A DNA stretch of 64,000 nucleotides from Planctomycetota bacterium (GTDB lineage: Bacteria; Planctomycetota; UBA1135; JAKEFM01). The position numbers were made by a program, and so were the translations under genes. The notes under the pieces were generated by a model. It did no database searches. It was not told the DNA's origin and saw only the letters and a list, made by a program, of their open reading frames with translations. Where the stretch lies: contig JAKEFM010000212.1 of assembly GCA_022616055.1 (NCBI GenBank), positions 18,228-82,227 on the forward strand. The letters run 5' to 3'. Positions 1,130 through 32,661 of this stretch are shown piece by piece (positions within the stretch are counted from its first letter, which is position 1; each line of letters opens with the position of its first letter).

Positions 1130-1939
1130 CTACTTCTTCCCCGTCGCCTGCTTGAGCTCCGTCTTCAGGTACCGCATGTCCTTGATGAACTGGTCGATCG
1201 CCTTGCCGTCCTCCGGGGTGACCCCGTCCAGGCGGACGCGGACCTTGACGGCCCCGTCGGGCTGCGCCTCGAATCCGAGCGCCGTCGAGTCGATCTCGAG
1301 CGGCCCCCGCTTCTTGTAGAGGGGGAGCCAGAACTTGAGGCGCATCGTCGCCTCCGAGCCGAAGATCTCCGCGGCCTGCACGGAGTCGACCTTCGCCTCG
1401 GCCCCTCCGTAGAGGAAGGCGAGCCCCTTCTCGTCGACGGTGGCGAGGCGGCCGACGCCGACCTCCTTGCCGAGCTTCTTGCGCCGGCCCGCGTCGTCGA
1501 GGGTGAAGAGAACGGTGGCGGCGTCCTTCACCTCGATCGGGCTGCGGGTCTCGACGAGGGGGTCGCGCCGGGGCGCCGGCGCCTCGGGCTCCTTCGCGGC
1601 GGGGGCGGCGACGTGGGCGAGGGCCTGCGCCTCGTCGGCGAACATCCGCAGCGAGTTCGCGAGGCCCACCTTCTCGATGACCCCCTTCACGAACGGGGAA
1701 GGCTGGGCGATCGCGAGCTCGCCCCCCGCCTCGCGCAGCCTCTTGCGCGCCTTGACGAGGGCCCCGAGCGCCGTCGAGTTCAAGAACGGCGTCAGCCGGA
1801 GGTTGAGGGCCACGCGGACGGCTCCGGCCTTCGCCAGGGCCTCGACCGCTTCGTTGAAGGCGGGGCAGTGGAACGTGTCGAACTCCCCCTTGAGGTGGAG
1901 CACGGCGCGATCCCCCTGGACGTTTTGTTCGATGTTCAT
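1130..1939 (-). CDS. STAS-domain protein (anti-sigma-factor-antagonist-like) with a ~150-aa uncharacterised C-terminal domain
   Basis: Start is placed at MNIEQNVQGDRAVLHLKGEFD (ATG 1937-1939). The N-terminal ~110 aa have a SpoIIAA/STAS-like pattern (LxLxGxxD ... LNSTALGALV). The upstream part of track ORF 1130..2758 is R/P/G-rich junk. Confidence 0.8.
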   Translation of the reverse strand: MNIEQNVQGDRAVLHLKGEFDTFHCPAFNEAVEALAKAGAVRVALNLRLTPFLNSTALGALVKARKRLREAGGELAIAQPSPFVKGVIEKVGLANSLRMFADEAQALAHVAAPAAKEPEAPAPRRDPLVETRSPIEVKDAATVLFTLDDAGRRKKLGKEVGVGRLATVDEKGLAFLYGGAEAKVDSVQAAEIFGSEATMRLKFWLPLYKKRGPLEIDSTALGFEAQPDGAVKVRVRLDGVTPEDGKAIDQFIKDMRYLKTELKQATGKK

Positions 1940-2007
1940 GTCGGAGGCCGGCGGCGGGCGAGTAGAGCGAGTGTAGGTGGACCCCTCCGGGGGGGCAAGG
2001 CGGGCCG

Positions 2008-3033
2008 TCAGCCCCTTCGAGCGGCCTTGATCCGGGCCGCGAACTCCTGCAACCCCTTCTCGACGGTCGCGACCTGCTCCGGCGTGAGGCGGCTCCCGCC
2101 CCCCTTCAACATCGAGAGGAAGTGGTCGATCTCCTCCGATTCCACGGGGCAGCCCACATTCCCCTTCGGTCCGTCCGAAGTCGCGGCGACCGCCCCTTTC
2201 GAGTCGAGGAAGGCGAACCAGGGGATCCCTCCCCCCTCTCCGGGGCGGAACCGCGCCTGGACCTCCTTGCCGTGGACCATCCGATCGATGTCGATCCTCG
2301 CCCGGACGAGATCGAGGCCGAGGACCCCGTCGATCTCCTTTCGCCCGAGGAACTCCTCGAGCCGGTGGCACCAGCCTCACCAGGGCGCGCCGAACCGGAG
2401 GAAGACCCTCTTCCCTTCCTTCCCGGCCCGGGCGACCGCCTCCGCGAGCACCTTCTCGGCGTCGAGGGGCGGGGCCGCCCACTTCTCGAGGAAGGTCTTC
2501 ACTTTCGCCGGGTCGTGCGCGGAACCCGCCTCCAGGGAGGAGGTCTCCTGGTTCGCGAGGGGCTTCCCCTCGGCGTCGAGGACCGTGAGGAAGGGGATGC
2601 CGTTCTGCCGGACGGGGGCGCCGAGGTCGGCCGCGAGGGCCTCGTTCTTGTCGAACCGTCCGACGTCGACCAGGACCTTCTCGTACTCGTAGAGGAGAAC
2701 GCGGGCGATCTCCGGGTTCTTCTTGAAGAGGTCGTCGAGCTTCCGGCACCACCCGCACCAGTTCGCCCCGAAGACGAGGAGCACTCGCTTGTTCTCCTCC
2801 TTCGCGCGGGCGAGGGCCGCCTCGATCTGCTTCTTCGCGTCGGCGGACTCGTCGTAGATCGGGGCGGGCTTCTTCTCCTCGGTGGACGGCGTCCCCTCCT
2901 GGGATCGCGCCGGAACCGCGATCAGGGCGGCGAGGAGGAGGAGGATCCCCGGCGCAGGCCTCGTCACGGAATCCGGCTCGCGTCGGGGCCCGTAGGGAGA
3001 TCGTTCGACCTTCCGAAGCAGGAGCTGCGCCAT
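2008..3033 (-). CDS. Secreted tandem thioredoxin-fold protein, predicted selenoprotein (in-frame UGA at 2377-2379 read as Sec)
   Basis: Track ORFs 2377..3033 and 2008..2280 are in the same frame, separated only by TGA. Domain 1 has VFGANWCGWC and domain 2 reads RFGAPW-TGA-GWCHRLEEF, so the TGA sits at the first Cys of a CxxC motif. An N-terminal hydrophobic signal is present (GILLLLAALIAVPA). The start may be GTG 2967 instead of 3033. Confidence 0.7.
2343..2362 (-). other. Candidate bacterial SECIS hairpin downstream of the in-frame UGA
   Basis: The mRNA GCUCGAGG-AGUU-CCUCGGGC forms an 8-bp stem (one G-U pair) with an apical loop containing GU. The loop starts 25 nt after the U of UGA, within the spacing I recall for bacterial SECIS models. 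Confidence 0.5.
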
Positions 3034-3098: not shown

Positions 3099-3899
3099 CT
3101 AGCGCAGGGCCTGGATCCTCATCCGGCTGAACTTCACCTTCGTACCCTTGTCGACGACGATGCCGACCGAGCCCTTGCGGGAGGCCGTCCAGGGCATCTC
3201 CGTCTCGAAGGGCGGCCGGTCCCCTACCTTCAGGACGAACCGGTTCCCGATGCAGGAGATCTCACAGCCGGAGGGCGTCCCCGGCGTGAGTTGGCCCGGG
3301 GCGACGGCGAGGGAGACGCTCATGGCCCGCCGATCCGCATGCGGCCCGAGCCGGACGAAGAGCTCGACCTTGCCCGACTCGAAGGTGACCTCGAAGTCGA
3401 GGACGAAATCGCGCCATTTCTCCCGATCCCCGGTCGAGAGGATCCCCTTCTTCCCCGTCCCCTCGGCGGGCCCCACGATCCGGAGGGTCCCCCTCTCGAT
3501 TCGCCACGAGAAACCCTCGACCGAGTTGGCGATCCAGTCCCTCACCCTGTCGGGCGTGAGGAGATCGATCCACGGGACGGTCGCGATCGTCTCCGGGGTG
3601 AACACCGCCGCGCACAGCGCGTTGCTCTCGTCCAGGATGCCCCGGTACTGGCGCTCGAAGAACTCCTGGTCTTCCTTGACCCGCGAGACGAAGGAGCGCT
3701 CGAAGAGCCGGTAGACCTCCTCCTCCGCCTGCTTGTAGCGGTCGAGCGCCTCCCTCCCCTTGTCGGGGTTCGCGGCCAGGGCCTTCGCCTCCGCGTGCAG
3801 CCGACTAGCCTGGTCGCGATCGGGCTCGTTCGGCGCCTGGACGGCGGCGCCGCCGACGATCAGCAGAGGGACGCTCAGGGGAAGGACGGCAGCCCGCAT
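3099..3899 (-). CDS. Secreted DUF1080-like (3-keto-disaccharide hydrolase / LamG-fold) protein
   Basis: Start is placed at MRAAVLPLSVPLLIVGGAAVQA (signal peptide, ATG 3897-3899). The C-terminal W..G.L...G...L.T...Y.DF.L..E pattern (FSWRIERGTLRIVGP ... WRDFVLDFEV) resembles DUF1080. Confidence 0.75.
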   Translation of the reverse strand: MRAAVLPLSVPLLIVGGAAVQAPNEPDRDQASRLHAEAKALAANPDKGREALDRYKQAEEEVYRLFERSFVSRVKEDQEFFERQYRGILDESNALCAAVFTPETIATVPWIDLLTPDRVRDWIANSVEGFSWRIERGTLRIVGPAEGTGKKGILSTGDREKWRDFVLDFEVTFESGKVELFVRLGPHADRRAMSVSLAVAPGQLTPGTPSGCEISCIGNRFVLKVGDRPPFETEMPWTASRKGSVGIVVDKGTKVKFSRMRIQALR

Positions 3900-4017
3900 C
3901 GGCGAGGCTCCTTCGGGGGGAAAGGCAGGGTCGAGCACACTCTTGGACCCGCGCTGCGTCAAGGGCGAGACCAGAATGGACGCGACGCCGCGCATTCTCG
4001 CGGCGCCATGCCTCCTC

Positions 4018-6727: not shown

Positions 6728-7480
6728 TCAGGGGGCGGCCCCCTCCTTCTTCCCCGCGGCCTCGAGCGCCTCGATCTCCATCTTGATCCGCGCGATCTCC
6801 GCCTCGCTCACCATCAGGTCGATCTTCCGCTCGAGGGAGGCGGTCTCCGCCGCCCGGCGGGCGCGGTCGAGGTCCTGCGCCTTCGCCTCGACCTCGGCGG
6901 AGAGCTTCGCCCGCTCGAGGGGGAGGGTGTTCTGCTCGAGCCGCTGGACCTCCTGCTCCTGGAGCGCGAGGCGCTGCGTCGCCCGCTCGACCCGGCGCTT
7001 GCCGCGGCGGATGACGACCTCCTTCGTCATGTCGGCGAGGTCCTGCCCCTTGTACATCATCTCGAGCTGCTCGAGCTCCTCCTTCGCCTCGTCGAGCATG
7101 TCGCGCGCCTGCTGCATGTCGAGGCGGGCGCGCGCGCGACGCTGCGGGTCCTCCTTCTCCTCGAAGTCCCGCAGCCGCCCCAGGGCGAGGTCGTGCTCCT
7201 TCTTCGCCTTGTCGAGGGACACCTGATTCGCGGACTCCTGGTCCCCCTGCTCCTTCCTCGCCTTGGCGAGCTTCGCCTCCGCGATGGGGCGCTCGCGCTC
7301 GAGCCCGGCCCGCTTGAGGGCCTTCTGTCGCGCCTCCTCCTCCTTCTCCTTCGAGGGGGCGGCCGGGGCGGCGGCTCCCGGAGCCGATGCGGCCGATTGG
7401 GTCTGCGCGCTGCCGCAGCCGCCGGCGAGCAGGGCGGCAGCGAGGGCGCCCCCGAGGACGGGGGCGGAGAGACGGGTCAT
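6728..7480 (-). CDS. Coiled-coil lipoprotein of unknown function
   Basis: MTRLSAPVLGGALAAALLAGGC carries a lipobox. SD GGAGG lies 7 nt upstream of ATG 7478-7480. The rest is a K/E/R/Q/L-rich heptad-like sequence. Confidence 0.7.
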   Translation of the reverse strand: MTRLSAPVLGGALAAALLAGGCGSAQTQSAASAPGAAAPAAPSKEKEEEARQKALKRAGLERERPIAEAKLAKARKEQGDQESANQVSLDKAKKEHDLALGRLRDFEEKEDPQRRARARLDMQQARDMLDEAKEELEQLEMMYKGQDLADMTKEVVIRRGKRRVERATQRLALQEQEVQRLEQNTLPLERAKLSAEVEAKAQDLDRARRAAETASLERKIDLMVSEAEIARIKMEIEALEAAGKKEGAAP

Positions 7481-7684
7481 CGCGAATCCTCCCGGGGAAA
7501 AGGGCGAAGGCCGCGGCATCGTAGCCGCCCGGGAGAGAAGGGGGAGGCCGGACCCGGTCGCTCGAAGGAGGTGGGAGGGTCGCGAGGAGGGTCGCGGAGG
7601 GGCCCGGCCTCCCGTCAGATTGTCAAAACGTCTCGAGTGGGCCGACGCGGCCCCCGATCCGACAACGCCCGGGGAGAGAGAGCT

Positions 7685-7701
7685 TGCTGCGCACGCACCA
7701 G
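7685..7701 (-). promoter_or_regulatory. Second, weaker sigma-54-like box
   Basis: The minus strand reads CTGGTGCGTGCGCAGCA. GG and GC have the correct spacing, but the flanking bases diverge from TGGCAC-N5-TTGCW. Confidence 0.15.
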
Positions 7702-7736
7702 GTGGATCGGAGACCGCGCCGCGCGGGGGGGACCAC

Positions 7737-7752
7737 AACAATCTGCGTGCCA
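7737..7752 (-). promoter_or_regulatory. Candidate sigma-54 (-24/-12) promoter reading toward the 7480 lipoprotein operon
   Basis: The minus strand reads TGGCACGCAGATTGTT. The -24 element TGGCACG is perfect, but -12 is TTGT rather than TTGC. It lies ~100 bp downstream of the NtrC-family regulator gene. Confidence 0.3.
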
Positions 7753-7849: not shown

Positions 7850-9265
7850 TCAGACGGCCGCGAGGTTTTCCGGGGGGGTCGGTTTCCTTCCCTGCTCGAA
7901 CCCGAACTTCTCGATCCGGTATCGAATCTGGTCCCGATTCAGGCCGAGGAAGCGCGCCGCCTGGGACCGGTTCCCCTTGGCGCGCTCCAGGGCCTGGCGG
8001 ACGAGGTCGCGCTCGAGCTGCTCGAGGACGAGCCCGTCCGGGGGAAGGAGGAAGATGGAGGCGGGGAGGCCGTGGCGCCTCTCGTCCGCCCCCCCGACGA
8101 TCTCCCGGGGGAGATCGGCCCGGCGGACGATCCCTCCCTCCGCGAGGAGCACCGCCCGCTCGACGGCGTTGCGCAGCTCCCGGACGTTGCCCGGCCAGGG
8201 GTAGCGCTGGAAGGCCTGGAGCGCCGCGGGCTCGATCTCGGAGACGTCCTTCCGGAACTCCTTCCGGAAGTGCGCCAGGAACATGCGGGCGAGGGGCTGG
8301 AGGTCCTCGGGGCGTTCCCGCAGCGGGGGGATGAGGACCGGGATGACCTTGAGCCGGAAATAGAGGTCGCGGCGGAAGCGGCCCGCCTCCACTTCGGCGT
8401 CGAGGTCCCGGTTCGTGGCGGCGACGATGCGCACGGAGACCCTCAGGTCGCGCGTCCCCCCGACGCGCCGGAAGGACTTCTCCTCCAGGACCCGGAGGAG
8501 CTTCGCCTGCAGGCCGGGGGAGAGGTCTCCGATCTCGTCGAGGAAGAGGGTCCCGCCGTCCGCCAGCTCGAAGAGCCCGCGCTTCTGGACCTTCGCGTCG
8601 GTGAACGCTCCCCGCTCGTGTCCGAACAGCTCGGACTCGAGGAGGGTCTCGGGGATGGCGGTGCAGGTGACGTTCAGGAACGGGCGCTCGGCCGTCCGCC
8701 CTTCGTGGTGGAGGGCGCGGGCGGCGAGGCCCTTTCCCACTCCCGACTCCCCGAGGAGGAGGATCGTCGTCGCCTCGCTCTGGGCGACCCGCCGAAGGAG
8801 GTGGACCACCTCCCGCATCGCGGCGCTCTCGGCGACGAGGTTGGGGAGGCCGAACTGCCGCTTCTCCTCCTCCTGCCGGCGGGCGAGCTGGCGCCGGAGG
8901 GAGTAGGCCTCGAGGGCGCGCTCGACCCGGACCAGGAGGTCGTCGGCCTCGTAGGGCTTGGCAAGGTAGTCGTGCGCCCCCTCCCGGACGGCGGCGACGG
9001 CCCCCGCCAGGCTCGCGTGCGCGGTCAGGAGGAGGACCGGCACGTCGGGCGAGAGGGCCCGGATCGACTTGAGCACCTCGAGCCCCGTCCGATCCGGGAG
9101 CCGGTAGTCGAGGATGACCAGGTCCGGGGTCTCCCGGGAGAAGGCCTCGAGCGCGGCCCCGCCCTCGTCCGCCTCCTCGACCTCGTAGCCCGCCTCCTCC
9201 AGGCTCGCCTTCAGGGACCACCGGATCATCTTCTCGTCGTCGACGATCAGGATTCGGGCAGGCAT
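7850..9265 (-). CDS. Sigma-54-dependent response regulator (NtrC/AtoC family: REC + AAA+ + Fis-type HTH)
   Basis: ILIVDDE...DLVILDYRLPD (REC). GESGVGKG (Walker A), GAFTDA/ESELFGHERGAFT (GAFTGA-like sigma-54 contact loop), GTLFLDEIG and WPGNVRELRN (AAA+). C-terminal NRSQAARFLGLNRDQIRYRI (HTH). Confidence 0.95.
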   Translation of the reverse strand: MPARILIVDDEKMIRWSLKASLEEAGYEVEEADEGGAALEAFSRETPDLVILDYRLPDRTGLEVLKSIRALSPDVPVLLLTAHASLAGAVAAVREGAHDYLAKPYEADDLLVRVERALEAYSLRRQLARRQEEEKRQFGLPNLVAESAAMREVVHLLRRVAQSEATTILLLGESGVGKGLAARALHHEGRTAERPFLNVTCTAIPETLLESELFGHERGAFTDAKVQKRGLFELADGGTLFLDEIGDLSPGLQAKLLRVLEEKSFRRVGGTRDLRVSVRIVAATNRDLDAEVEAGRFRRDLYFRLKVIPVLIPPLRERPEDLQPLARMFLAHFRKEFRKDVSEIEPAALQAFQRYPWPGNVRELRNAVERAVLLAEGGIVRRADLPREIVGGADERRHGLPASIFLLPPDGLVLEQLERDLVRQALERAKGNRSQAARFLGLNRDQIRYRIEKFGFEQGRKPTPPENLAAV

Positions 9266-9310
9266 GCTGGTGGGTTGGGGGTGCCGGTCACGCGGGACAT
9301 TCCACCACCC

Positions 9311-9332
9311 CGCCGGGGAATATTCCCCGGCG
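9311..9332. promoter_or_regulatory. Perfect 22-bp palindrome in the divergent regulator/kinase intergenic region
   Basis: cgccggggaat|attccccggcg, 11+11 with no mismatch, 46 bp upstream of the regulator ATG (9265). A second TTCC-N-GGAA element (ctttcctggaaag) lies at about 9394-9406. Confidence 0.6.
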
Positions 9333-9448
9333 TTCCGCTGCCCGAGCCCCCGCCGGGAGGCCTTCCTGCATACCGCGGGCCTGCCGTTGGCTTTCCTGGA
9401 AAGGGCCGTACAGTGCCGAAGCGGTCACGGGATCGGAGCGAGATACAC

Positions 9449-11779
9449 GTGAAGCAGCGGGTCCTCGCCCCCTCCCCTGGAAAGAGCGACGCGGAGGTTC
9501 TCGCCCGTCTCTCCGGGGCGGTGGAGCCCCATCTCGGGTCGATCGCGGAAGGGTGCGCCGACGTTCTCCTCGGGCGCGAGGAGGCGAGGCGGTACTTCGC
9601 CGGGGAAGAGGGGAAGTGCCTCGACCGGACCGAGGAGCTCCTCGCCTGGCTCCGGGGGCTCTTCTCCGTCGAGGTCGAGTCGACCCGCCGGGCGCGGTGG
9701 GAGCGATTCGGCGGAGTCTGCTTCCGGATGGGGCTTCCCGTCCAGGTCGTCGTGGCCTGCGTCGGGGCCGCCCGCCAGCGGCTGGCCGAGATCCTGCGCC
9801 GCCGTCTCTCGCGGAGCCGGGACCTGCTCGCACGCTCCGTGAACGCCCTCCACCGCACGCTCGACACCGAGCTGGGCGGGATCCTCGAGGCCCACGAGGA
9901 GCACCGGCTCCGGGGGGTCGAGGAGAATCGACGACTGCTCGCGGAGGCGGAGATCGACCGCACGCGCAGGGAGGCCGAGGAGCGGTTCTGGCTGCTGGCG
10001 GAGGCGACGACCCTCGGGATCTACGACTGGGACATCCCGAAGGACCTCCTCTGGTGGAGCGAGGGGTTCTACCGCCTGTTCGGCTACGAGCCGGGGACCC
10101 GGACGTCGAACATCGCGTGGTGGAAGAAGGGGATCCACCCGAAGGACTACCCCCGCGTGGTCGCGGGGATCGAGAAGGCGATCGAGGAGAAGGCGCGGTT
10201 CTGGACCGACGAGTACCGGTTCGCCCGGGGGAACGGGACCTACGCCTGGGTCCTCGACCGCGGCTACTTCATCCGCGACGAGGCGGGGCGGGCCGCCCGG
10301 ATGGTGGGGGCGATGATCGACCTCTCGGACCGCCGCGAGTCCGAGGAGCGGTTCCGCCTCCTCGCGGAGGCGACGAACGACACCGTCTGGGACTGGGACC
10401 TCGTCAAGGACGTCGTCTGGTGGGGGGAGGGATTCCGGCGGATGTTCGGCGATGCCCCGGGGACGAGCGGCTGCATCAACAACTGGTGGACGCTGAGGAT
10501 CCATCCGGAGGACCGGGAGCGGGTCTCGGCGGGGCTCAAGGCCGTGGTCGAGAAGAGCCTCCCGTTCTGGACGGAAGAGTACCGGTTCCGGCGCGCGAAC
10601 GGGACCTACGCCGACATCCTCGACCGGGGGTACACGATCCTCGACGACTCCGGGAAGCCCGTCCGGATGGTCGGCGCGATGATGGACGTCACGGACCGGC
10701 GTCAGGCCGAGCAGGAGATCCGGCGTCAGAGGGACCTCGCCGAGCGGATCCTCCGCAGCAGCCGCGAGGCGATCGTCGTCGTCGACCGGGAGCTCCGGTT
10801 CACGCTCTGGAACCCCGCCGCGGAACGGATGTCGGGCCTGAAGGCGGAGGAGGTCCTCGACCGGAATGTCTTCGAGGTCTTCCCGTTCATCCGGGAGATG
10901 GGGGACGAGGGGGGCCTCTTCCGCGCTCTCGCGGGGGAGCCGGTGTCGCTGCGCCGCCGCCGCTTCCACATCCCCGCGACCGGGCGGGGCGGCCTCTACG
11001 ACGCGCAGCTGAGCCCGCTGCGGGACGAGAAGGGCGAGATCGTGGGGGTCCTCTCCGTCTCCCGGGACGTCACCGAGGAGGAGCGGATGAAGGAGACCCT
11101 CGGGCGCGCGGAGCGCTTCTCCGCGCTCGGCGAGGTCGCGGCGATGATCGCCCACGAGGTCCGCAACCCCCTCACGGCGACGAAGGGGGTGCTCCAGGTC
11201 CTGCTGCGGCGGCTCCCCCAGGAGTCCGCCGATCGCGCGGCGGTGTCGGAGACGGTGGAGCGGCTCGACGCCCTCGCCCGTCTCATCACCGACCTCCTCT
11301 CGTTCTCCCGGCCGATCCACGTCCAGGTCCGGCCGCTCGACGCGCGGGAGGCCCTGCGCACGATCGCGGAGGGTCTCGGCCGGGAGGAGGGGTTCCGGCT
11401 CCTCTCCGTCCGGTTCGAGGACCCGGGGGACGTCGGCCGGATCGCCGCCGACCCCGCCCTCCTCTGGATGGCCTTCCTCCACCTCGCCCGCAACGCCGTC
11501 GAGGCGGCGAACGGCCCCGCCGAGATCACCCTCCGGGCGGAGCGCGTCGGGGAACGGATGGCGCTCCGGATCCTCGACCGGGGCCCCGGCATCGATCCGG
11601 CCGTCGGCTCGAAGCTCTTCTCCCCCTTCTTCTCCACGAAGCCCGGCGGGACCGGCATCGGACTCGCCATGGTGAAGCGGATCGCGGAGGCCTTCGGCGG
11701 CGAGGTCGAGGCCTCGAACCGGCCGGGAGGCGGGGCGGTCTTCACCCTCTACCTCCCGCTCGCGGAGGCCGAAGCGTAG
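9449..11779 (+). CDS. Soluble sensor histidine kinase: globin-coupled-sensor-like N-domain + 3 PAS + HisKA + HATPase_c
   Basis: GTG 9449 is the first in-frame start after junk in track ORF 7193..11779. H-box MIAHEVRNPL, N-box LARNAVEA, G-boxes DRGPGI and GGTGIGLAMV. PAS_3-like repeats are present (WW.EGF.R.FG). Confidence 0.9.
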   Translation: MKQRVLAPSPGKSDAEVLARLSGAVEPHLGSIAEGCADVLLGREEARRYFAGEEGKCLDRTEELLAWLRGLFSVEVESTRRARWERFGGVCFRMGLPVQVVVACVGAARQRLAEILRRRLSRSRDLLARSVNALHRTLDTELGGILEAHEEHRLRGVEENRRLLAEAEIDRTRREAEERFWLLAEATTLGIYDWDIPKDLLWWSEGFYRLFGYEPGTRTSNIAWWKKGIHPKDYPRVVAGIEKAIEEKARFWTDEYRFARGNGTYAWVLDRGYFIRDEAGRAARMVGAMIDLSDRRESEERFRLLAEATNDTVWDWDLVKDVVWWGEGFRRMFGDAPGTSGCINNWWTLRIHPEDRERVSAGLKAVVEKSLPFWTEEYRFRRANGTYADILDRGYTILDDSGKPVRMVGAMMDVTDRRQAEQEIRRQRDLAERILRSSREAIVVVDRELRFTLWNPAAERMSGLKAEEVLDRNVFEVFPFIREMGDEGGLFRALAGEPVSLRRRRFHIPATGRGGLYDAQLSPLRDEKGEIVGVLSVSRDVTEEERMKETLGRAERFSALGEVAAMIAHEVRNPLTATKGVLQVLLRRLPQESADRAAVSETVERLDALARLITDLLSFSRPIHVQVRPLDAREALRTIAEGLGREEGFRLLSVRFEDPGDVGRIAADPALLWMAFLHLARNAVEAANGPAEITLRAERVGERMALRILDRGPGIDPAVGSKLFSPFFSTKPGGTGIGLAMVKRIAEAFGGEVEASNRPGGGAVFTLYLPLAEAEA
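9980..10711 (+). repeat. Tandem duplication of a PAS module inside the kinase gene (2 x 366 nt)
   Basis: ERFWLLAEATTLGIYDWDIPKDLLWWSEGFYRLFGYEPG... aligns with ERFRLLAEATNDTVWDWDLVKDVVWWGEGFRRMFGDAPG..., with a period of exactly 122 codons. Confidence 0.7.
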
Positions 11780-19368: not shown

Positions 19369-20679
19369 GTGCCGTCGGGCGGTCGCGGCTCCCCGGCTCG
19401 GGCTCGGGGCGCGATCATCCTTGTGCCCGGAAGGCCGTTCAAGGTCGCCCTCGCTAGGATCCGGGCTCCGGCCGTGCGGAAGTCGATCGGGTCCACGTTC
19501 GGGGAACCGACGCCCGGGGAGGTCCCCGTCGCCGGGCGCGAGACGGTCCTCCGCATCGAGCGGCTCGTGGCGGGCGGCGCCGGACTGGCGCGGATGCCCG
19601 ACGGCCGCGTCGCGTTCGTCCCCCTCGCGGCGCCGGGGGACCGCGTCCGGGCGAGGGTGGTCCGGGAGCGCCGACGCGAGGTCCACGCCGAGATCCTCGA
19701 GGTCGTGGAGCCCGGGCCCGCGAGGCGCGCGGCTCCCTGCCCGTACTTCGGGACGTGCGGCGGCTGCGACTGGATGCACCTCGCCGAGGAGGCGCAGCGG
19801 GAGGCGAAGGGGGCGATCCTCCGCGAGGCCCTGCGGAGGCTGGGCGGAGTCTCGTGGGAGGCGCCGATCGAGGTCGTCGCCTCGCCCCCCTTCGGCTACA
19901 GGTCCCGCGCCCGGCTCGCCGTCCGGGGGGGGCGCGTCGGCTTCCTCGAGGCGCGGAGCGCGAGGGTCGTCGACGTCGAGGCCTGCGCCGTGCTCGAGCC
20001 GGAGGGGAGCCGGGCCCTCGGCGAGGTCCGTCGGGCCGCGCGGGAGGGGAACGCCCCCGGCGAGGTCCATGTCGCCGTCGGGGAGGAGGGCGCGGCCTGC
20101 TCGCCCCCGATCCCGGGAGTGCCCGCCGGTCCCGTCACGTGGAGGCTCGGCGGCCAGGAGTTCCGTTTCGATCCCGACGCCTTCGCCCAGGCGAACCGCG
20201 CGCTCGCCGAGGATCTCCGGTGCGAAGCGGTCGGCGAAGGGCGAGGAGATCGCGCGCTCGACCTCTACTGCGGGGCCGGGTTCTTCTCGCTCGCCCTCGC
20301 GCCGCGCTTTCGGGAGGTCCTCGGCGTCGACGGCGACGCGCGGGCGATCGGGCGGGCGCGGGAGAACGCGCGGTCGCTGCCGGGCCTGCGCTTCGTCGCG
20401 GCGGGGGCGAGGGAATGGTTCGCGCGCGGCGAGGCTCCCGAGCGTGCCGACTTCGTCCTCCTCGATCCCCCGAGGACGGGGACGGAGCCGGAGGTCCTCG
20501 AGGGGGTCGCTCGGTTGCGGCCGGCCCGCGCCGTGCTCGTGGGGTGCGACCCGGCGACGTTCGCGCGTGACGTGGGGAGGCTCGTCCGTCTGGGGTGGAG
20601 GCTCGAGAGGCTACGGGCCTTCGATCTCTTCCCGCAGACCCATCACGTCGAGGCGGTCGGAAGGCTCGTTCCGGCCTGA
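19369..20679 (+). CDS. RumA/RlmD-family 23S rRNA (uracil-C5)-methyltransferase (TRAM + Cys cluster + SAM MTase)
   Basis: TRAM-like [31 protein letters not shown]. Cys cluster [22 protein letters not shown] (SAM motif I), LLDPPRTG and [10 protein letters not shown]. The start is uncertain (ATG 19369 or GTG 19474). Confidence 0.85.
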
Positions 20680-21053
20680 GTCCGGGGGCTCCCCGCGCCC
20701 TTGGGGCCGCGGGCGAGCGTGCGCTCCTCGAATCGGGTGATCGACTTCCCGATCACGATCGCGATGACGACGAGGCTCGCGATCATCCCCCCGAAGGCGT
20801 ACTCGAGCTGGTGCACGATGCTCCAGAACGGCGCCTCGACGGGGGCCGGGGGATGCCCGGCGGTCATCGAGAGGAGCGTCGCCGCGAGGGTGACGATCAC
20901 GTTCACCATCGCGACCCAGAACTTGCCGCGGTCCTCGTGCTCGCAGAGCTCGGTCAGGATCGCCGTCAGGCGCCCGCGAAGGAGGAGGAGGACCCCCAGG
21001 GCGACCGCGAACGAAAGCAGGGTTCCGACGATGAACGCGCCGACCTGCGTCAT
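20643..21053 (-). CDS. Small integral membrane protein (about 3 TM) of unknown function
   Basis: Three hydrophobic helices (FIVGTLLSFAVALGVLLLL, VAMVNVIVTLAATLL, GGMIASLVVIAIVIG) with GC3-rich codons. The 3' end overlaps the methyltransferase 3' end by 37 nt. Confidence 0.55.
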   Translation of the reverse strand: MTQVGAFIVGTLLSFAVALGVLLLLRGRLTAILTELCEHEDRGKFWVAMVNVIVTLAATLLSMTAGHPPAPVEAPFWSIVHQLEYAFGGMIASLVVIAIVIGKSITRFEERTLARGPKGAGSPRTQAGTSLPTAST

Positions 21054-21113
21054 GGCACCGCCTCCTGGCGAGGCGAATGTAGGGCCCTCGCGGGGGGTGC
21101 GGTAGGGGGATTC

Positions 21114-21443
21114 CTACACCCGGCAGGCGCACCCCTTCGCTCGCAGGCGTCGGCGCTGGGCGCGCGGGGAGTCGACGAAGGCGCGCTGGACGAGCGGGCC
21201 CTTCGCGAGGCGGCGGTCGAGGGGGCTCGCGTGCCGGTAGCCGCGCCGGAGCATCTCCTCCACGAGGGCCTGGTGCCTGCGGAAGAGCGCACGCGTCTTC
21301 CCCGCCCAGCGAAGGGTCTCGGGATGCCGGGAGTAGCCCCGCTTCCGGCGGGTGAGGATCGACCAGACGGCGTGGAGCTCGCGGTGCTCGCCGAGGAGAT
21401 GGGAGCGGCAGAGGAGGAGGGGGGAGAGGTCCCAGATCCGCAC
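21114..21443 (-). CDS. Pyrimidine-dimer DNA glycosylase family protein (T4 endonuclease V-like, Pyr_excise)
   Basis: VRIWDLSPLLLCRSHLLGEHRELHAVWSILT...GYSRHPETLRW matches the family N-terminus, which normally starts MRIWD. GTG 21441-21443 is therefore preferred over the track start at 21524. Confidence 0.72.
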   Translation of the reverse strand: MRIWDLSPLLLCRSHLLGEHRELHAVWSILTRRKRGYSRHPETLRWAGKTRALFRRHQALVEEMLRRGYRHASPLDRRLAKGPLVQRAFVDSPRAQRRRLRAKGCACRV

Positions 21444-21668
21444 TTTGGTACTCGGGAGGGGGACTTTCTCCCGGAGGGGGGGCGTCCGTCCATGGCCCGG
21501 TCCCTCCTCCGGCACGACCCACATGGGTCGCTCCGGCTCCGCCCCGCGGCAGGGAAGGCGGGGTATGTTTTTCCGATGCCCGCCCGGGGGGGCGGGTCGA
21601 GCCTAGAGTCGACGGGGAACGACGCCCCGGGGGAGGGATCCGACCGCGGGGCGGGACGGGAGCGCCGG

Positions 21669-23018
21669 ATGTCCGCAGGGAGAAAGCGCGTCGTCATCCT
21701 TGGGGCCGGGGGGAGGGACTTCCACGTCTTCAACACGACGTACCGGGACCGCCCGGACGTCGAGGTCGTGGCCTTCACCGCGACCCAGATCCCGAACATC
21801 GCCGACCGCCGCTACCCCCCGTCTCTCGCCGGCCCCCTCTACCCCGCCGGGATCGGGATCCGGGACGAGCGGGAGCTCCCCTCGATCCTCCGGGATCGCG
21901 CGGTCGAGGAGGTCGTCTTCGCCTACAGCGACGTCTCCTCGGCCTACCTCGAGGAACGAGCGCGCGCGGCGCGCGAGGCGGGGGCGGGGTTCCGCACGTT
22001 CGACGTCGAGCCGACGCTCCTCGAGTCGGACCTCCCCGTCGTCGCCGTCTGCGCCGTGCGGACGGGGTGCGGCAAGAGCCAGACGACGCGGCGCGTCGCC
22101 GCGCTGCTGCGCGCGATGGGGCGGCGGACGGTCGTCGTCCGGCATCCGATGCCCTACGGCGACCTCGAGCGCCAGGCGGTGCAGCGGTTCGCCTCGATCG
22201 GGGACCTCGCGCGCGAGGCGTGCACGATCGAGGAGATGGAGGAGTACGAGCCTCACCTGCGCGCGGGCTCCGTCGTCTTCGCCGGCGTCGACTACGCCCG
22301 GATCCTGCGCGCGGCCGAAAAGGAGGCCGACGTCCTCCTCTGGGATGGCGGGAACAACGACCTCCCCTTCTTCCGGCCGGCGGTCCACATCGTCGTCGCC
22401 GATCCGCTCCGGGCGGGCCACGAGCTCGAGTACTTCCCCGGCCGGATGAACCTCGAGCGCGCCGACGCCGTGGTCGTGAACAAGATCGACTCCGCCTGGT
22501 CCGAGGACGTCCGGCGGGTCGTCGCGAACGTCCGGAGCGTGAACCCGCGGGCGGCGCTCGTCCTCGCCCGCTCCCCCGTGACCGCCGCCGACCCCGGCGC
22601 GATCCGGGGCCGGCGGGTCCTCGTCGTCGAGGACGGCCCGACGCTCACCCACGGGGGCATGGCCTTCGGGGCCGGGGTGGTCGCGGCGAGGGGGTGCGGG
22701 GCGCGCGAGATCGTCGACCCGCGCCCGTACGCCGTCGGCTCGATCGCCGCGACCTTCCGGGCCTACCCGCGGACGGGTCCCGTCCTCCCGGCGATGGGGT
22801 ACGGCGAGGAGCAGGTCCGGGAGCTCGCCGAGACGATCGAGCGCACCCCCTGCGACGTCGTCGTCGTCGGGACCCCCGTCGACCTCGCGCGCGCCGTCCC
22901 CTTCTCGAAGCCCTCCGTGCGGGTCACCTACGAGCTCGAGGAGGCCTCTCGCCCCGGGCTCGCCGAGCTCCTCGCCTCCCGCCTCGGGGCCGGGGACCGG
23001 GCGGCCGCCGCCGGATGA
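21669..23018 (+). CDS. COG2403-type P-loop protein (cyclic 2,3-diphosphoglycerate synthetase-like / predicted GTPase)
   Basis: Start MSAGRKRVVILGAGGRDFHVFN. P-loop AVRTGCGKSQTT, then DGGNND and VVNKID (NKxD-like). The upstream part of track ORF 20595..23018 is junk. Confidence 0.82.
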   Translation: MSAGRKRVVILGAGGRDFHVFNTTYRDRPDVEVVAFTATQIPNIADRRYPPSLAGPLYPAGIGIRDERELPSILRDRAVEEVVFAYSDVSSAYLEERARAAREAGAGFRTFDVEPTLLESDLPVVAVCAVRTGCGKSQTTRRVAALLRAMGRRTVVVRHPMPYGDLERQAVQRFASIGDLAREACTIEEMEEYEPHLRAGSVVFAGVDYARILRAAEKEADVLLWDGGNNDLPFFRPAVHIVVADPLRAGHELEYFPGRMNLERADAVVVNKIDSAWSEDVRRVVANVRSVNPRAALVLARSPVTAADPGAIRGRRVLVVEDGPTLTHGGMAFGAGVVAARGCGAREIVDPRPYAVGSIAATFRAYPRTGPVLPAMGYGEEQVRELAETIERTPCDVVVVGTPVDLARAVPFSKPSVRVTYELEEASRPGLAELLASRLGAGDRAAAAG

Positions 23019-27069: not shown

Positions 27070-27804
27070 ATGGAACGGCGGAGCCAGTATCGAATCGAGC
27101 TCGGGGAAAAGAGCACCGTCGAGGTGAGCATCCTCGTCAAGAACCGGCCGCTCATGGTCGGCCGCCTCCACGACGTCTCCGCCGAGGGGGCGGGGGTGGT
27201 GCTCCCGAGCCTCGCGAGCGCCCCTCTCGCCGTCGGCGAGGAGGCCGAGCTCGTCTTCGTCGGCAAGACGATCGTCAAGCCGCTGCGGGTCTCCGCGGTC
27301 CTCGTCCACCACCGGATCGAGGGGAGGGGGGCGGAGGCGGTCCAGCACTTCGGATTCGACTTCACGAACAAGGACGGGTTCGACGAGCTCCTGATCGCCC
27401 AGGACCTCCACGTCCTCTTCAACCGCCGCAAGACCCGGCGGGTCGAGCCGGACCCGGAGGAGCCGGTCGAGGCCCTCCTCGAGGACGAGGTCCGCGGCAA
27501 GTCGGGATCGGCGCGCGTCGTCGACCTCTCGACGTCCGGGGTCGGGCTCCACGTCACCTCCAAGGTCGACTCCCGGTTCGCCGAGGTGGAGAAGGTCCGC
27601 GTCGCGCTCCGGCTCCCGGGGATGACCGAGGACCTCCGGCTCGAGGGGAACGTCCGTCACCGCTCGGAGACGACCGGGGGAGGGATGCGGTACGGCATCG
27701 AGTTCGACCGGGTGCGGACGCCCCGTTTCGCCGAGCAGCAGGCGGTCCTCGTGCGGTACGTCGCCGGCTGCCTGCGCCAGCTCCTCAAGACCGGCGCGAA
27801 GTAG
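27070..27804 (+). CDS. Tandem PilZ-domain protein (putative c-di-GMP receptor)
   Basis: Two complete PilZ signatures: RRSQYR...DVSAEGAG and RRKTRR...DLSTSGVG. SD AGGAG lies 5 nt upstream of the ATG. Confidence 0.87.
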   Translation: MERRSQYRIELGEKSTVEVSILVKNRPLMVGRLHDVSAEGAGVVLPSLASAPLAVGEEAELVFVGKTIVKPLRVSAVLVHHRIEGRGAEAVQHFGFDFTNKDGFDELLIAQDLHVLFNRRKTRRVEPDPEEPVEALLEDEVRGKSGSARVVDLSTSGVGLHVTSKVDSRFAEVEKVRVALRLPGMTEDLRLEGNVRHRSETTGGGMRYGIEFDRVRTPRFAEQQAVLVRYVAGCLRQLLKTGAK

Positions 27805-28115
27805 CGCGCCTCGCGACGCTTCCCGGCCCGCCCGGGCCGCGGGTAGGATCGCGCCCGCTCTCCCGCCCCCGCGACGCGCGAGCGGGAGGATGCCATGATG
27901 CGACGCCCCGCACCGTTTTCAGCGACGTGGGCCTCCTCCCCGCGGCTCCGGCGCAGGCCCCTCGGGCGGCGAAGGCGAGCCGCGGGGACTTCGCGCGCGG
28001 CGACCCCCTCCTCGATGCGGCCCTCGCCCGGCGGGGTGAGTGGCCGGACGACGCCTCCCCCCCGGGCGCGGCTTCGCTTCACGAGGTCGACGGAGTAGCC
28101 GGGCGAGCCCGGATC

Positions 28116-30377
28116 ATGCGGATCACGTTCCGACTGATCGTCTCCCTCGTCGTCGTGGTGGCCGTGGTCGCGGCCACCTCGGCGTGGATCCACGTCGGCC
28201 AGGACCGCGCCCAGCGGCAGGACGAGATCGAGAGGCGATCTCGCCTCCTCGCGCTCACCCTCCAGGAGGTCGTCCAGCCCCTGGTGTCGGAGGAGACCTC
28301 CGAGCGGCTCCGGGGAATCGTCGAGAAGTACGCGAACCGGGAGCGACTGGCCGGCGTCGCGGTCTACGACAGGGAGGGACGCCTCCTCGCGGCGACCGCC
28401 GCCCTCTCCGGGGTGTTCGCCGAGCCCCCCGCGGCCGTCCGAGAGGCCCTGTCGAGATCCGTGGACGGGAGCGCGTTCGTCGAGATGGGGGGGAAGGAGG
28501 TCCACCTCTACGCCCTGCCCCTGACGGACGGGGGCGGGGTCGCCCACGCGCTCCTGATCGTCCACGATGCCTCCTTCATCCAGGCCCAGTTGCGGCAGAT
28601 CTGGCTGCACGCCTTCGTCAGGGTCCTCGCCCAATCCGCGCTCATCACCCTCGTCACGCTCCTCGTCATCCGGTGGAGCGTCTTCGGCCCGATCGCCCGG
28701 ATGGCGGAGTGGATGCGCGCGCTCCGCTCGGAGGGTGAGGTGCGCCCCCCGGAAGTCCCCAAGGGGGACCTCTTCGCGCCCATCGCCCGGGAGGTGACCA
28801 CCTTTGCCCGGCATCTGTCGGCGGCCAAGGCCGCGGCCGAGAGGGAGGCTGGACGCCCGCGGAAGGATGAGCCGGCCGGGACCCCGGAATGGCTCAAGGA
28901 GCATGTCCGCGCCCGCCTCGGGGACAAGCCGCTCTTCGTCGTCTCCAACCGGGAGCCCTACATGCACCTGCGGCGCGGCAGGGACGTGGAGGTCATCGTC
29001 CCTGCGGGAGGGCTCGTGACCGCGCTGGAGCCCGTGCTTCGGGCCTGCGGGGGGACGTGGATCGCGCATGGGGCCGGCGACGCCGACTTCGAGGTGACCG
29101 ACGGGAAGGGCCGGCTCCAGGTCCCCCCCGGCGACCCCCGCTACACCCTCCGGCGCGTCCCCCTCTCCAAGGAGGAGGAGCAGGGGTACTACTACGGCTT
29201 CTCCAACGAGGGGCTCTGGCCGCTCTGCCACCTCGCCCACACGCGCCCCATCTTCCGGGCCGACGATTGGGCCCAATACCAGCGGGTCAGCGAGAAGTTC
29301 GCGACGGCGGTCCTCGAGGAGGTGGAGGGGCTCGAGGATCCCTTCGTCCTCATCCAGGACTACCACTTCGCCCTCCTCCCGCGCCTCCTCAAGGAGCGCC
29401 GTCCCGAGATCCGGGCCGCCCTCTTCTGGCACATCCCCTGGCCCAATCCGGAGGCCTTCGGGATCTGTCCCTGGCAGCGCGAGCTGCTGCAGGGGATGCT
29501 CGGGGCCGATCTCGTCGGGTTCCAGACCCAGTCCCACTGCAACAACTTCCTCGACACGGTCGACGCCGCGCTCGAGGCGCGCGTGGACTGGGAGCGCTTC
29601 GGGGTCTCGAAGGAGGGCCACCTCACCCTGGTCAAGCCCTTCCCGATCAGCGTGGCGTTCCCCCCCGTCGCGCGGGATCCCTACCCGACGCCTCCCCGCG
29701 CGAAGGACCGCGACACGCTCCTGAAGGAGCTCGGGGTCCGCGCGAGGTTCCTCGGCGTGGGGGTGGACCGGCTCGACTACACGAAGGGGGTCCTCGAGCG
29801 CTTCCGGGCGATCGAGCGCTTCCTCGAGAAGCACCCCCGCTACCAGGGGGAGTTCGTCTTCGTCCAGATCGGCGCGCCGAGCCGGACCTACATCAAGCGC
29901 TACCACGACTTCCTCGCCGAGGTGGAGGCCGAGGCGCAGCGCATCAACTGGCGCTTCAAGAGGAAAGACTGGCGCCCGATCGTCTACCTCGAGAAGCACC
30001 ACAGCCACGAGGAGATCCTCCCGTACTATCTCGCCGCGGACCTCTGCATGATCACCTCCCTCCACGACGGGATGAACCTCGTCGCCAAGGAGTTCGTCGC
30101 CTCGAGGGAGGACGGGGAGGGGGTCCTCGTCCTGAGCCAGTTCGCCGGCGCCTCCCGGGAGCTGCGGGACGCCCTGATCGTCAATCCCTACAACGCCGAG
30201 CAGGGGGCGGAGGCGATCCGGTACGCGCTCGAGATGGACCCCGAGGAACGGCGGGCCCGGATGAAGGCGATGAGGGAGACGCTTCGCGAGAACAACGTCT
30301 ACCGCTGGGCCGGGAGCCTGATCGAGGAGCTCTCCCGCCTGCGGCTGCGCGAGCCCACTCCGGCGGGGAGCGAGTGA
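28116..30377 (+). CDS. otsA: Trehalose-6-phosphate synthase (GT20, OtsA-like) fused to an N-terminal 2-TM sensor and HAMP module
   Basis: The first ATG gives [25 protein letters not shown] (TM1). A ~165-aa loop, TM2 ([19 protein letters not shown]) and a HAMP-like region ([13 protein letters not shown]...[12 protein letters not shown]) follow. GT20 motifs are [49 protein letters not shown] and [13 protein letters not shown]. Confidence 0.9.
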
Positions 30378-30378
30378 G

Positions 30379-30777
30379 ATGCCCTCCGCCCTTTTCCTGT
30401 GCCGGCACAACGCCTGCCGGAGCCAGATCGCCGAGGCGGTCTGCCGGAGCCTCGCGCCGGCGTGGGACGTGGCGAGCGCGGGCTCGAGGCCGTCGGCGGA
30501 CGTGGACCGGAAGGCCGTGGAGATCCTCCGCCGCCACGGCCTCGCGATGGCGAGCCCTCGCCCCAAGGGCGTCCCCGGCCTCCCCTCCCGGCGCTGGGAC
30601 GTCGTCGTCTGCATGGGATGCGACGGCGCGGGCGCCGGCCTGCCGAGCGGTCGCTACGTCGAGTGGCCCGTCGAGGACCCCAGCGACGGGCCGATCGAGA
30701 TCTACGAGGCCCTCTTCCGGGAGTTGAGCGAGCGCGTCGGCGGGCTCGTCCGGGAAGCGGAGAGCCCCGCCCGATGA
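30379..30777 (+). CDS. Low-molecular-weight phosphotyrosine-phosphatase / ArsC-fold protein
   Basis: Starts 1 nt after the otsA stop. CX5R(S) P-loop LCRHNACRSQIAE. DPSDG (Asp loop)-like VEDPSDG. Only part of the Trx-coupled ArsC Cys triad is present. Confidence 0.82.
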   Translation: MPSALFLCRHNACRSQIAEAVCRSLAPAWDVASAGSRPSADVDRKAVEILRRHGLAMASPRPKGVPGLPSRRWDVVVCMGCDGAGAGLPSGRYVEWPVEDPSDGPIEIYEALFRELSERVGGLVREAESPAR

Positions 30778-31454
30778 TCCCGCGGGCGCGGGAGCCGTTC
30801 CGCTTCTTCGTCCGGACGAGCCTCACCCTCGTCACGGGGATCCGGGCCCGGACCGTCCGCGAGCTCGCCGGTCGCCTGAAGGAGGCCCCGGACTCCTGCG
30901 TCTACCAGCACACCCACCGGTTCCTCCAAGAGCACCAGTACCTCGTGCCGGAGCCGCCGAACGACTTCGCGTACTGGGCGACGGAGATGCTCCAGGACGA
31001 GGCGCTGGGCGAGCGCCTGGCCTCCGTCGACACGGTCCGGTTCCGCTCGCTCGGGGAGCTGCGGGCCGCCCTCCTCGGGGTCCTCGAGGACCATGTCCTC
31101 CGGAACGGGGAGGGCCGCCCCGCCCCCCCCGGGAAGGAGTTCCACTTCATGCGGGCCGTCCGCTTCTCCGTGCCGACCCGCGAGGTGGCCCACGATCTCG
31201 CCGAGTTCGGCGATTGCCTGCGCAGGGTGGGCCTCTCGAGCCTCTACCTCCACGTCTTCGAGGCCCGCCTTCGCCTCCCGAGCGTCGAGGCCAACGACTT
31301 CGCGGTCTGGTTCGAACGGGAGCTGGGGGAGGCCGAGCTCGCCCGGCGGGTGGGCCGCCTCGACCCCTACGCCCACACGCTCCAGGGCCTGCGCGCGCGT
31401 CTCCTCGCCATGGTGAGGAGCCGCCTCAAGGATCTCGGCCATGCCCCGGCTTGA
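30774..31454 (+). CDS. Conserved hypothetical protein, resembles the family I recall as DUF5752 (TreT-associated)
   Basis: ATGA overlap with the phosphatase gene. FFVRTSL...TGIRARTVRELAGRLKE...SCVYQHTHRFLQEH...NDFAYW. The family assignment is from memory only. Coding is supported by codon bias and coupling on both sides. Confidence 0.75.
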   Translation: MIPRAREPFRFFVRTSLTLVTGIRARTVRELAGRLKEAPDSCVYQHTHRFLQEHQYLVPEPPNDFAYWATEMLQDEALGERLASVDTVRFRSLGELRAALLGVLEDHVLRNGEGRPAPPGKEFHFMRAVRFSVPTREVAHDLAEFGDCLRRVGLSSLYLHVFEARLRLPSVEANDFAVWFERELGEAELARRVGRLDPYAHTLQGLRARLLAMVRSRLKDLGHAPA

Positions 31455-32661
31455 GGAGTACGCGCCGATCGTCGGCGCGGACACCCTCGAGGAGCTCTCC
31501 CTCGTCGCGGACCGCGTCAAGGGACGCTCCGTCCTCCACGTCAACTCGACGGCGGTGGGGGGGGGGGTCGCCGAGATCCTGCACCGCATGGTCCCCCTGT
31601 TCCGCGAGCTCGGCCTCGACGCCCACTGGGAGGTGATCCGCGGCGGCGAGGACTTCTACGCCGTGACGAAGAAATTCCACAACGCCCTCCACGGCCAGCC
31701 GGCGGAGTTCACGGCCCGGGACTTCCAGGTCTACGGCGAGACGACGGCGGAGAACTTGGCCCGCCTCGCGCTCGACGCGGAGGTCGTCTTCATCCACGAT
31801 CCGCAGCCCGCCGCCCTCGTGGAGAAGCGCGGGGCCAACCGCTGGGTGTGGCGCTGCCACATCGACCTCTCCCAGCCGGACGAGCGGGCCTGGGCCTTCC
31901 TCCGGCCGTACGTCGAGCGATACGACGCCTGCATCGTCTCGGCCCCCGGCTTCGCCCAGGAGCTCCCGATCCGCCAGGTGCTCATCGCCCCGTCCATCGA
32001 TCCCCTGAGCGAGAAGAACCGGGAGCTCTCCCCCGACGAGGTCCGCGGCGTCCTCGCGCGCCTCGGCATCCCGACGGACAAGCCCCTCGTCACGCAGGTC
32101 TCGCGCTTCGACCGCCTGAAGGATCCCCTCGGCGTGATCGAGGCGTTCCAGCGGGCCAAGCCCTACGTCGACGCGCGGCTCCTCCTGGTCGGGGGCTCGG
32201 CCGACGACGACCCGGAGGGGGCCCAGGTCCTCGCCGAGGTGCGGGACCGCGCCAGCGGCGAGCCGGACATCCTCGTCCACGAGCTCCCTCCCACGAGCCA
32301 CCTCGAGATCAACGCCATCCAGCGCGCCTCGACGGTCGTCCTCCAGAAGTCCCTGCGGGAGGGCTTCGGCCTCACGGTCGCCGAGGCCCTCTGGAAGGGG
32401 AAGCCGGTCATCGCGGGCGCGGTCGGCGGCATCCCCCTCCTGATCGCCCACAAGCACTCGGGGATCCTCGTCCACTCGGTAGAGGGGGCGGGCTACTGGA
32501 TGAGGCGCCTCCTCTCCGAGCCCGAGTTCGCCACCCGGCTCGGGGCCAACGGCCGGGAGCATGTCCGGCAGAATTTCCTCCTCACGCGCCACCTCCGGGA
32601 CTACCTCCTCCTCATCCTGTCCCTCGATCACCCCGGGGAGGACTTCGTCCCCCTGCGGTGA
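31441..32661 (+). CDS. treT: Trehalose glycosyltransferring synthase (TreT, GT4)
   Basis: Near-colinear by-eye match to my recollection of the archaeal TreT sequence: HVNSTAVGGGVAEILHRMVPL, FYAVTKKFHNALHG, HDPQPAAL, WRCHIDLS, PSIDPLSEKN, VSRFDRLKDP and SLREGFGLTVAEALWKGKPVI. It overlaps the upstream gene by 14 nt. Confidence 0.92.
   Translation: MPRLEEYAPIVGADTLEELSLVADRVKGRSVLHVNSTAVGGGVAEILHRMVPLFRELGLDAHWEVIRGGEDFYAVTKKFHNALHGQPAEFTARDFQVYGETTAENLARLALDAEVVFIHDPQPAALVEKRGANRWVWRCHIDLSQPDERAWAFLRPYVERYDACIVSAPGFAQELPIRQVLIAPSIDPLSEKNRELSPDEVRGVLARLGIPTDKPLVTQVSRFDRLKDPLGVIEAFQRAKPYVDARLLLVGGSADDDPEGAQVLAEVRDRASGEPDILVHELPPTSHLEINAIQRASTVVLQKSLREGFGLTVAEALWKGKPVIAGAVGGIPLLIAHKHSGILVHSVEGAGYWMRRLLSEPEFATRLGANGREHVRQNFLLTRHLRDYLLLILSLDHPGEDFVPLR

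Follow-up and report, generated by a model that had tools for sequence, protein, structure and literature searches.

Thioredoxin-fold proteins with a UxxC motif form the commonest class of predicted bacterial selenoproteins. In members of this class selenocysteine (Sec) takes the place of the N-terminal Cys of a CxxC motif, homologs with Cys far outnumber the Sec forms, and the SECIS element directly follows the UGA, inside the coding sequence. The speeding-up of thiol–disulfide exchange by Sec is established selenoprotein chemistry. The stretch of DNA analysed here (64,000 nucleotides from a Planctomycetota bacterium, referred to below as the window) carries on its minus strand, at 2008-3033, a gene whose product appears to have these same features and which, judged on its sequence, is most likely a further example of the known UxxC thioredoxin-fold selenoproteins and not a new principle. 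The window protein differs from those described in that its thioredoxin-fold domains are in tandem, with Sec in the second only, and in that its best Pfam match is to Thioredoxin_7 (PF13899).

A Sec-containing redox motif alongside a Thioredoxin_7-type domain is also a property of the Trx7/PDZ (seleno)protein family (NCBIfam NF041199). That family combines a CxxU motif with a PDZ domain, whereas the window protein has UxxC and no PDZ match in Pfam, and membership was rejected at 21.1 bits against a cutoff of 300. Indeed, the window protein fell below every specific cutoff of the curated NCBIfam selenoprotein models that were tried; the selenoprotein TsoB (NF045694, a rhodanese/DsbD fusion) was matched through its thioredoxin-like part only, at 49.6 bits against a cutoff of 805. 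Among the entries covered from the 119-family inventory of 2026, the only Thioredoxin_7-related one is a CxxU Trx7/PDZ family, and a Thioredoxin_7 protein with a UxxC motif and tandem architecture is not among them when these are compared by description. A literature search for PF13899 paired with ‘selenoprotein’ found no paper, and it is possible that a generic ‘Trx-like’ heading already includes the family.

The closest solved folds and sequences are those of the DsbD gamma domain, Chlamydia DsbH and the Xylella protein 3fk8, which are exported CxxC thioredoxin-fold proteins that pass reducing equivalents in the periplasm and all of which use Cys. By sequence the nearest are 3fk8 (a Xylella ‘disulphide isomerase’, E = 2e-19) and DsbH (2ju5). 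The DsbH model (NF043050) was matched at 48.8 bits against a cutoff of 190 and the DsbD model (NF001419) at 36.2 bits against a cutoff of 330, and the window protein has no membrane domain; on these comparisons it is a relative, not a member, of the DsbH and DsbD families.

Reading frame and domain architecture

Translation of the minus strand from 3033 to 2008 gives a single frame of 341 codons whose sole interruption is a TGA at 2379-2377, with 218 codons before it and a further 122 after it, up to a terminal TGA at 2010-2008. A mechanical list of open reading frames divides this frame into two ORFs on the minus strand, 2377..3033 (218 aa) and 2008..2280 (90 aa). The initial annotation had recognized that the two share a frame that stays open from the TGA down to 2008, and had expected standard annotation to truncate or split the gene; this is what is found, as the GenBank entry (MCI0588218.1, ‘thioredoxin family protein’) is a shortened product of 196 aa and other gene callers return products of 218 aa and 90 aa. 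The start codon is taken here to be the ATG at 3033-3031, the GenBank start being the GTG at 2967-2965. The complete gene (2008..3033, minus strand; 218 aa, Sec and 122 aa, 341 sense codons) is delimited on the basis of the single open frame, an end-to-end alignment with Cys homologs of ~325 aa, and equal dN/dS on either side of the UGA. The codon-position composition 3′ of the TGA is coding-like (GC1 0.68, GC2 0.47, GC3 0.89). An open frame alone is weak evidence because the GC content is 72%, and the case for a selenoprotein is made here from comparative data, not from the open frame or from the folding energy of the hairpin described below.

The two halves of the protein are paralogous (33% identity by BLASTP, E = 2e-20). 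When Cys is put in for the stop, Pfam matches are obtained to Thioredoxin_7 (79.3 bits against a gathering cutoff of 27, in two stretches), to Thioredox_DsbH and to Thioredoxin_2, and the protein also matches PF13098. The first thioredoxin-fold domain (2572..2838, minus strand; PF13899 at residues 66-154, 3fk8 at E = 2e-19) has the active site C93-G-W-C96 at 2757-2746, within the NWCGWC motif that had been picked out from the sequence at the outset. The second domain (2011..2466, minus strand) contains the second Thioredoxin_7 stretch, has the active site U219-G-W-C222 at 2379-2368 and is followed by a C-terminal helical extension. The TGA is aligned with the first Cys of the CGWC of the first domain, in agreement with the earlier reading of the motif as APW[TGA]GWC, in which a stop codon replaces the N-terminal Cys of a CxxC.

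A protein search returned 924 relatives, the typical one of which is a two-domain Planctomycetota protein of ~325 aa. One Cys homolog, P0004, is 54-58% identical to the window protein and was used in its stead for structural work. The AlphaFold2 model of P0004 (pLDDT 91.5, pTM 0.84) consists of two thioredoxin folds, with Cys81 and Cys207 at the N-termini of helices; the Sec column corresponds to Cys207, which lies between a strand (197-203) and a helix (208-218). Its neighbours in Foldseek are 3fk8, DsbH (2ju5), DsbD-gamma (2fwf), and the tandem-thioredoxin proteins ERp72 a0a and Pyrococcus PDO. Assignment of the window protein to Pfam Thioredoxin_7 is thus supported both by a score above the cutoff and by the position of the CxxC motifs at helix N-termini in the P0004 model. 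The protein begins with a probable signal peptide (…RPAPGILLLLAALIAVPARS|QEG; 2902..2967, minus strand), a hydrophobic stretch followed by small residues for which the consensus among homologs is LxAxLxAxxAxAQE. From the resemblance of this N-terminus (…GILLLLAALIAVPARS|QEG) to a signal peptide, export to the periplasm is probable.

Recoding of the in-frame UGA

Alignment of the window protein with 77 full-length Planctomycetota homologs showed Cys to be invariant in these at positions 219 and 222, the former being the position of the in-frame UGA (2377..2379, minus strand; codon 219). The three closest database proteins, and likewise a fourth, end exactly at …GAPW, and on the contigs that encode these truncated proteins (L001, from GCA_035260065.1, and L002-L004, from ENA and Logan; 81-83% identical) the TGA is kept and is followed by 122 conserved in-frame codons. 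In a scan of GTDB with one genome per species 80 loci were kept, and the motif was located in 74. At the Sec column TGA is found in 8 of these 74 species-representative loci, among them L005 (72% identical), L009, L013, L015, L018 and L028 (46-51%), and L066; 62 loci encode Cys, by TGC or TGT. The L001 contig is a further TGA locus outside the species scan, so that TGA is recorded at this column in L001-L005, L009, L013, L015, L018, L028 and L066. The alignment that had been suggested as a check therefore gives Sec/Cys pairs at exactly this column, and in a neighbour-joining tree the Sec forms are found in three groups among the Cys forms.

The UGA is followed by a candidate bacterial SECIS hairpin, GCUCGAGG-AGUU-CCUCGGGC (2343..2362, minus strand), with a stem of 8 bp (G18-C37…G25-C30) that includes one G·U pair, and an apical loop AGUU at 2354-2351; the hairpin sequence encodes R-LEEFL-G. 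The initial annotation had noted a stem-loop that starts 17 nt past the UGA, counted from its U, and has GU in its apical loop; it is located accordingly at 2362-2343. The consensus for bacterial SECIS elements has been defined as a loop of 3-9 nt, a stem of 4-16 bp, a G in the first two loop positions followed by a U, a spacing of 16-37 nt between UGA and loop, and a minimum free energy of -7.5 kcal/mol or lower (PMC13188914, Fig. 2). With a loop of 4 nt (AGUU), a stem of 8 bp, a spacing of 22 nt from UGA to loop and a folding energy of -14.8 kcal/mol, the window hairpin agrees with this consensus in all four respects (PMC13188914). In common with the SECIS/SelB system of the E. coli fdhF type, the hairpin lies right 3′ of the UGA inside the ORF, has G-U in the apical loop and is spaced within the consensus range. 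It differs from the fdhF type in having no bulged U in the stem, in its loop (AGUU) and in that binding of SelB is a proposal; its 16-nt core is also unusually invariant across lineages that are ~50% divergent in protein.

By itself the fit to the consensus constitutes modest evidence, and the comparative evidence is much stronger. The folding energy is ordinary (z = -0.12 versus shuffles), and a hairpin of at least 8 bp and equal quality follows ~4.6% of the 719 TGA trinucleotides in the window. In this GC-rich region the Cys-form loci, too, give stable folds at the same place (mean -11.0 kcal/mol versus -13.1 kcal/mol in the Sec forms), and folding energy was dropped as evidence for a SECIS on the two grounds of the z score and of the folding of the Cys-form loci. 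The 16-nt core CTCGAGGAGTTCCTCG is present at an identical offset in 11 of 12 TGA loci and in 0 of 62 Cys loci. In lower-GC lineages, the chance of the exact core codons given the codon usage of the gene itself was 0.007 for L013, 0.045 for L018 and 0.065 for L009. Cys-encoding sister lineages have LDDFLA, LDAFLR or LEDWMA at the place of the hairpin, as against LEEFLG in the Sec forms. When the codon before the core was left free to be TGA, TGC or TGT, at least 120 metagenome stretches matched, and among the matches listed the codon was TGA in 120 out of 120, each with a long in-frame continuation.

Across the loci, no compensatory changes were found in the hairpin: five pairs are invariant, one has U·G replaced by U·A, and some lineages have lost the two basal pairs. 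In the 101 unique metagenome sequences among the matches listed, the stem ranges from 5 to 10 bp, and pair 18-37 is the only one that is paired more often than in shuffles. The support for the hairpin as a putative SECIS is therefore its invariance, a single replacement (of U·G by U·A) that is compatible with pairing, and its link to the UGA. Rfam returned no SECIS family, either for the whole window at the gathering threshold or in a permissive scan of 2200-2480, and the weak matches obtained (Scr5676, L31 leader) are unrelated.

Two further observations were made on hairpins among the relatives. In L066 (3484-3560) there is a TGA at the same column without the core, and a different hairpin, UGGCC-CGUGA-GGCCA, whose loop starts 33 nt after the UGA; this could reflect an independent Cys-to-Sec conversion or turnover of the SECIS. 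In three Cys-form loci (L040, L044 and L055) a longer hairpin is present at +17, counted from the Cys codon, for example AGCUCGAGGCGUGGAUGGCCAGGCCCGAGG, with energies of -14 to -17 kcal/mol, which may be either a SECIS relic or a chance product of GC-rich coding DNA.

The single frame, the Sec/Cys column, the conservation of the UGA and of the codons downstream, the thioredoxin fold, and a hairpin that is both conserved and exclusive to the UGA forms are all directly supported. Taken together, they make it highly probable that 2008-3033 (minus strand) constitutes a single gene, whose product is an exported two-domain thioredoxin-fold protein with Sec, encoded by UGA, at its second active site. 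The initial proposal of a probable selenoprotein is borne out in the same way, by a TGA at an invariant-Cys column, by conserved coding downstream of it and by a hairpin that occurs only with TGA. The product would comprise ~340 residues and have two DsbD-gamma/DsbH-like thioredoxin-fold domains (Pfam Thioredoxin_7): the first would have an ordinary CGWC, and in the second the first, attacking residue would be Sec (UGWC) from the UGA at 2379-2377. According to the proposed mechanism, the hairpin at 2362-2343, 14 nt past the UGA, would bind SelB·GTP·Sec-tRNA(Sec), and Sec would be inserted at codon 219 in place of termination. Translation would then run for 122 more codons and terminate at the TGA at 2010-2008, which is without such a hairpin. 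The protein is probably a periplasmic thiol–disulfide (selenosulfide) oxidoreductase, a role for which we infer export, redox direction and physiological partners. Sec would occupy the exposed attacking position, as in known UxxC selenoproteins, where the selenolate, as the faster nucleophile, would allow quicker thiol–disulfide exchange.

The same full-length protein could be made without selenium if the UGA were read through independently of Sec, by a near-cognate tRNA (Trp or Cys) or a mis-acylated tRNA, with the hairpin acting as a general stimulator. Such read-through would accord with the lack of covariation in the hairpin, and sequence alone does not tell which residue is inserted. It would also accord with the absence of Sec machinery from the sequence searched, namely the window and the 8 kb beyond it, in which no selA, selB, selD or tRNA-Sec gene was found; the 8 kb past the window end hold the rest of an H+-pyrophosphatase gene, ExbB/ExbD genes and TPR genes. 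Pfam identified no SelA, SelB or SelD domain among 40 window ORFs. ARAGORN found no tRNA in the window or in ten Sec-form loci, and no tRNA-Sec among the 3 tRNAs detected across 205 sequences (the window and loci). When the window and 1.2 Mb of related loci were searched by tblastn, the SelA, SelB and SelD proteins of E. coli gave no match to the machinery, the sole match being a generic GTPase in a Cys-form locus. Full sets of Sec-insertion genes have been reported in other Planctomycetes (PMC4807772), so that the phylum does include organisms with the trait. Against Sec-independent read-through, the recoded column is precisely that of a redox Cys in a CxxC motif, a position at which Sec and Cys typically replace one another, and the loop sequence and spacing of the hairpin agree with the consensus for SECIS elements of the SelB type (PMC13188914). 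Moreover, the trait has been kept across lineages that are ~50% divergent, although TGC and TGT are only one mutation away if Cys were wanted. Read-through of this kind is judged very unlikely.

If the TGA were a true stop, the locus would be a pseudogene, or would encode a single-domain product of 218 aa together with an unrelated 90-aa ORF. GenBank and all gene callers annotate it so, and TGA is an ordinary stop in this genome. Termination here would, however, cut the second domain inside its active site. Homologs that uniformly ended at this position, which had been named in advance as an argument against a selenoprotein, are not what was found, as the Cys forms run to their full length of ~325 aa. 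The TGA is followed by 118-122 in-frame codons in 12 TGA loci, and conservation at the protein level extends over the 32 codons that separate the TGA from the first ATG, that for the second Cys of the motif among them. For the window versus L001, L002 and L005, dN/dS was 0.19-0.38 over the 122 downstream codons and 0.19-0.40 over 170 upstream codons; for all six pairs of these four sequences the ranges were 0.19-0.52 downstream and 0.19-0.47 upstream. The downstream ratio thus equals the upstream one, and therefore the stretch after the ‘stop’ evolves as translated protein. Many lineages, and at least 120 metagenome contigs, retain the TGA, and in each case the frame stays open for a long way beyond it, which likewise argues against termination. 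A true stop is considered a still more remote explanation than Sec-independent read-through. The Sec/Cys column, and the conserved UGA with purifying selection downstream, are both as expected of a bacterial selenoprotein gene.

The source is a metagenome-assembled genome, but an artefact of sequencing or assembly, or a genetic code that reads UGA as sense throughout, is effectively refuted: GCA_973789155.1 and two separate SRA runs hold a gene 100% identical to that of the window, TGA included, so that the identical TGA in three further assemblies (four in all) rules out a sequencing error; TGA closes 17 of the 33 Pfam-supported window ORFs (TAG closes 16), and is therefore a normal terminator, which excludes a reassigned code; and the residue that homologs carry at the column is Cys and neither Trp nor Gly. 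Resequencing that gave TGC or TGT in place of TGA had been named at the outset as a refutation; these independent assemblies and sequencing runs all have TGA.

Related architectures and the surrounding genes

It is conceivable, though we hold the idea only tentatively and would not put it at an even chance, that the UGWC domain and its LEEFL-encoding hairpin, with a near-invariant core (CUCGAGGAGUUCCUCG), form a widespread uncatalogued selenoprotein module of Planctomycetota and neighbours, one that occurs in several architectures, is systematically split in annotation and leaves the selenoproteome of the phylum under-counted. Several architectures are seen in the metagenome loci (L087-L125). 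Some are tandem proteins with an active first domain; others are tandem proteins with a degenerate first domain that lacks CxxC (L088, L090, L093, L106, L110 and L123); and some are short, lipoprotein-like single-domain forms with ‘…LILAGCTPAP…’ (L092, L094, L112 and L119). In three-domain relatives (L096, L109 and L114) a second in-frame TGA lies in an N-terminal TlpA/redoxin-like domain (‘DFWGTW-U-GPC’), which in L096 is upstream of 1208-1244, and these three are candidate double selenoproteins.

The practical value of these findings is in the repair of annotation, since GenBank and automatic callers cut the gene at its active site, and the same mis-annotation affects at least 120 metagenome contigs and 8 species-representative genomes. 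If the family were recognized, the selenoproteome of Planctomycetota would gain a periplasmic member, and the lineages that carry it would be marked as users of selenocysteine. The family also offers a clean natural set in which to study constraints on the SECIS, as its 16-nt core is tied to the UGA and forces LEEFL on the protein. The understanding of Sec decoding itself is unchanged, and nothing mechanistically unexpected was encountered.

A second selenoprotein candidate was not found in the 64-kb window. Same-frame ORF pairs at 43329 and 30375 proved to be ordinary adjacent genes, and a composition scan of the window left only the TGA at 2379-2377 and an ordinary stop at 20677. The latter (20677-20679, plus strand) is the sole other TGA in the window whose flanks both have coding-like GC3; it ends a tRNA(U5)-methyltransferase-like ORF (19369-20679) and has no redox motif; the high GC3 that follows it is probably the antisense of a minus-strand ORF at 20643-21113.

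The order of genes around the thioredoxin-fold gene is kept in the close relatives L001, L002, L003 and L207: next to it comes a gene for a 269-aa STAS-domain protein, and after that a convergent H+-pyrophosphatase gene (window 1130-3033 and 3-1073). Immediately upstream of the selenoprotein gene is an ORF (3099-3995, minus strand) of 298 aa with no Pfam match at E <= 1e-5, and other long high-GC3 ORFs without a Pfam match at this threshold are found at 6728-7741 (minus), 20595-23018 (plus), 40732-42429 (minus) and 43329-44645 (minus). A sigma-54 (NtrC-type) response regulator gene (7850-9265, minus strand) is divergent from that of a protoglobin-PAS-PAS histidine kinase (~9299-11779, plus strand). 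Two paralogous AAA_14/DUF4143 ATPase genes, at 36987-38144 (plus) and 50141-51313 (minus), are ~12 kb apart. On the plus strand at 27927-32661, Pfam matches point to a candidate trehalose-related cluster, which is preceded by a gene for a PilZ-domain protein (27070-27804) and which consists of genes for an 816-aa Glyco_transf_20 protein (OtsA-type trehalose-6-phosphate synthases belong to this family), for a DUF5752 protein and for a trehalose synthase of the TreT type.
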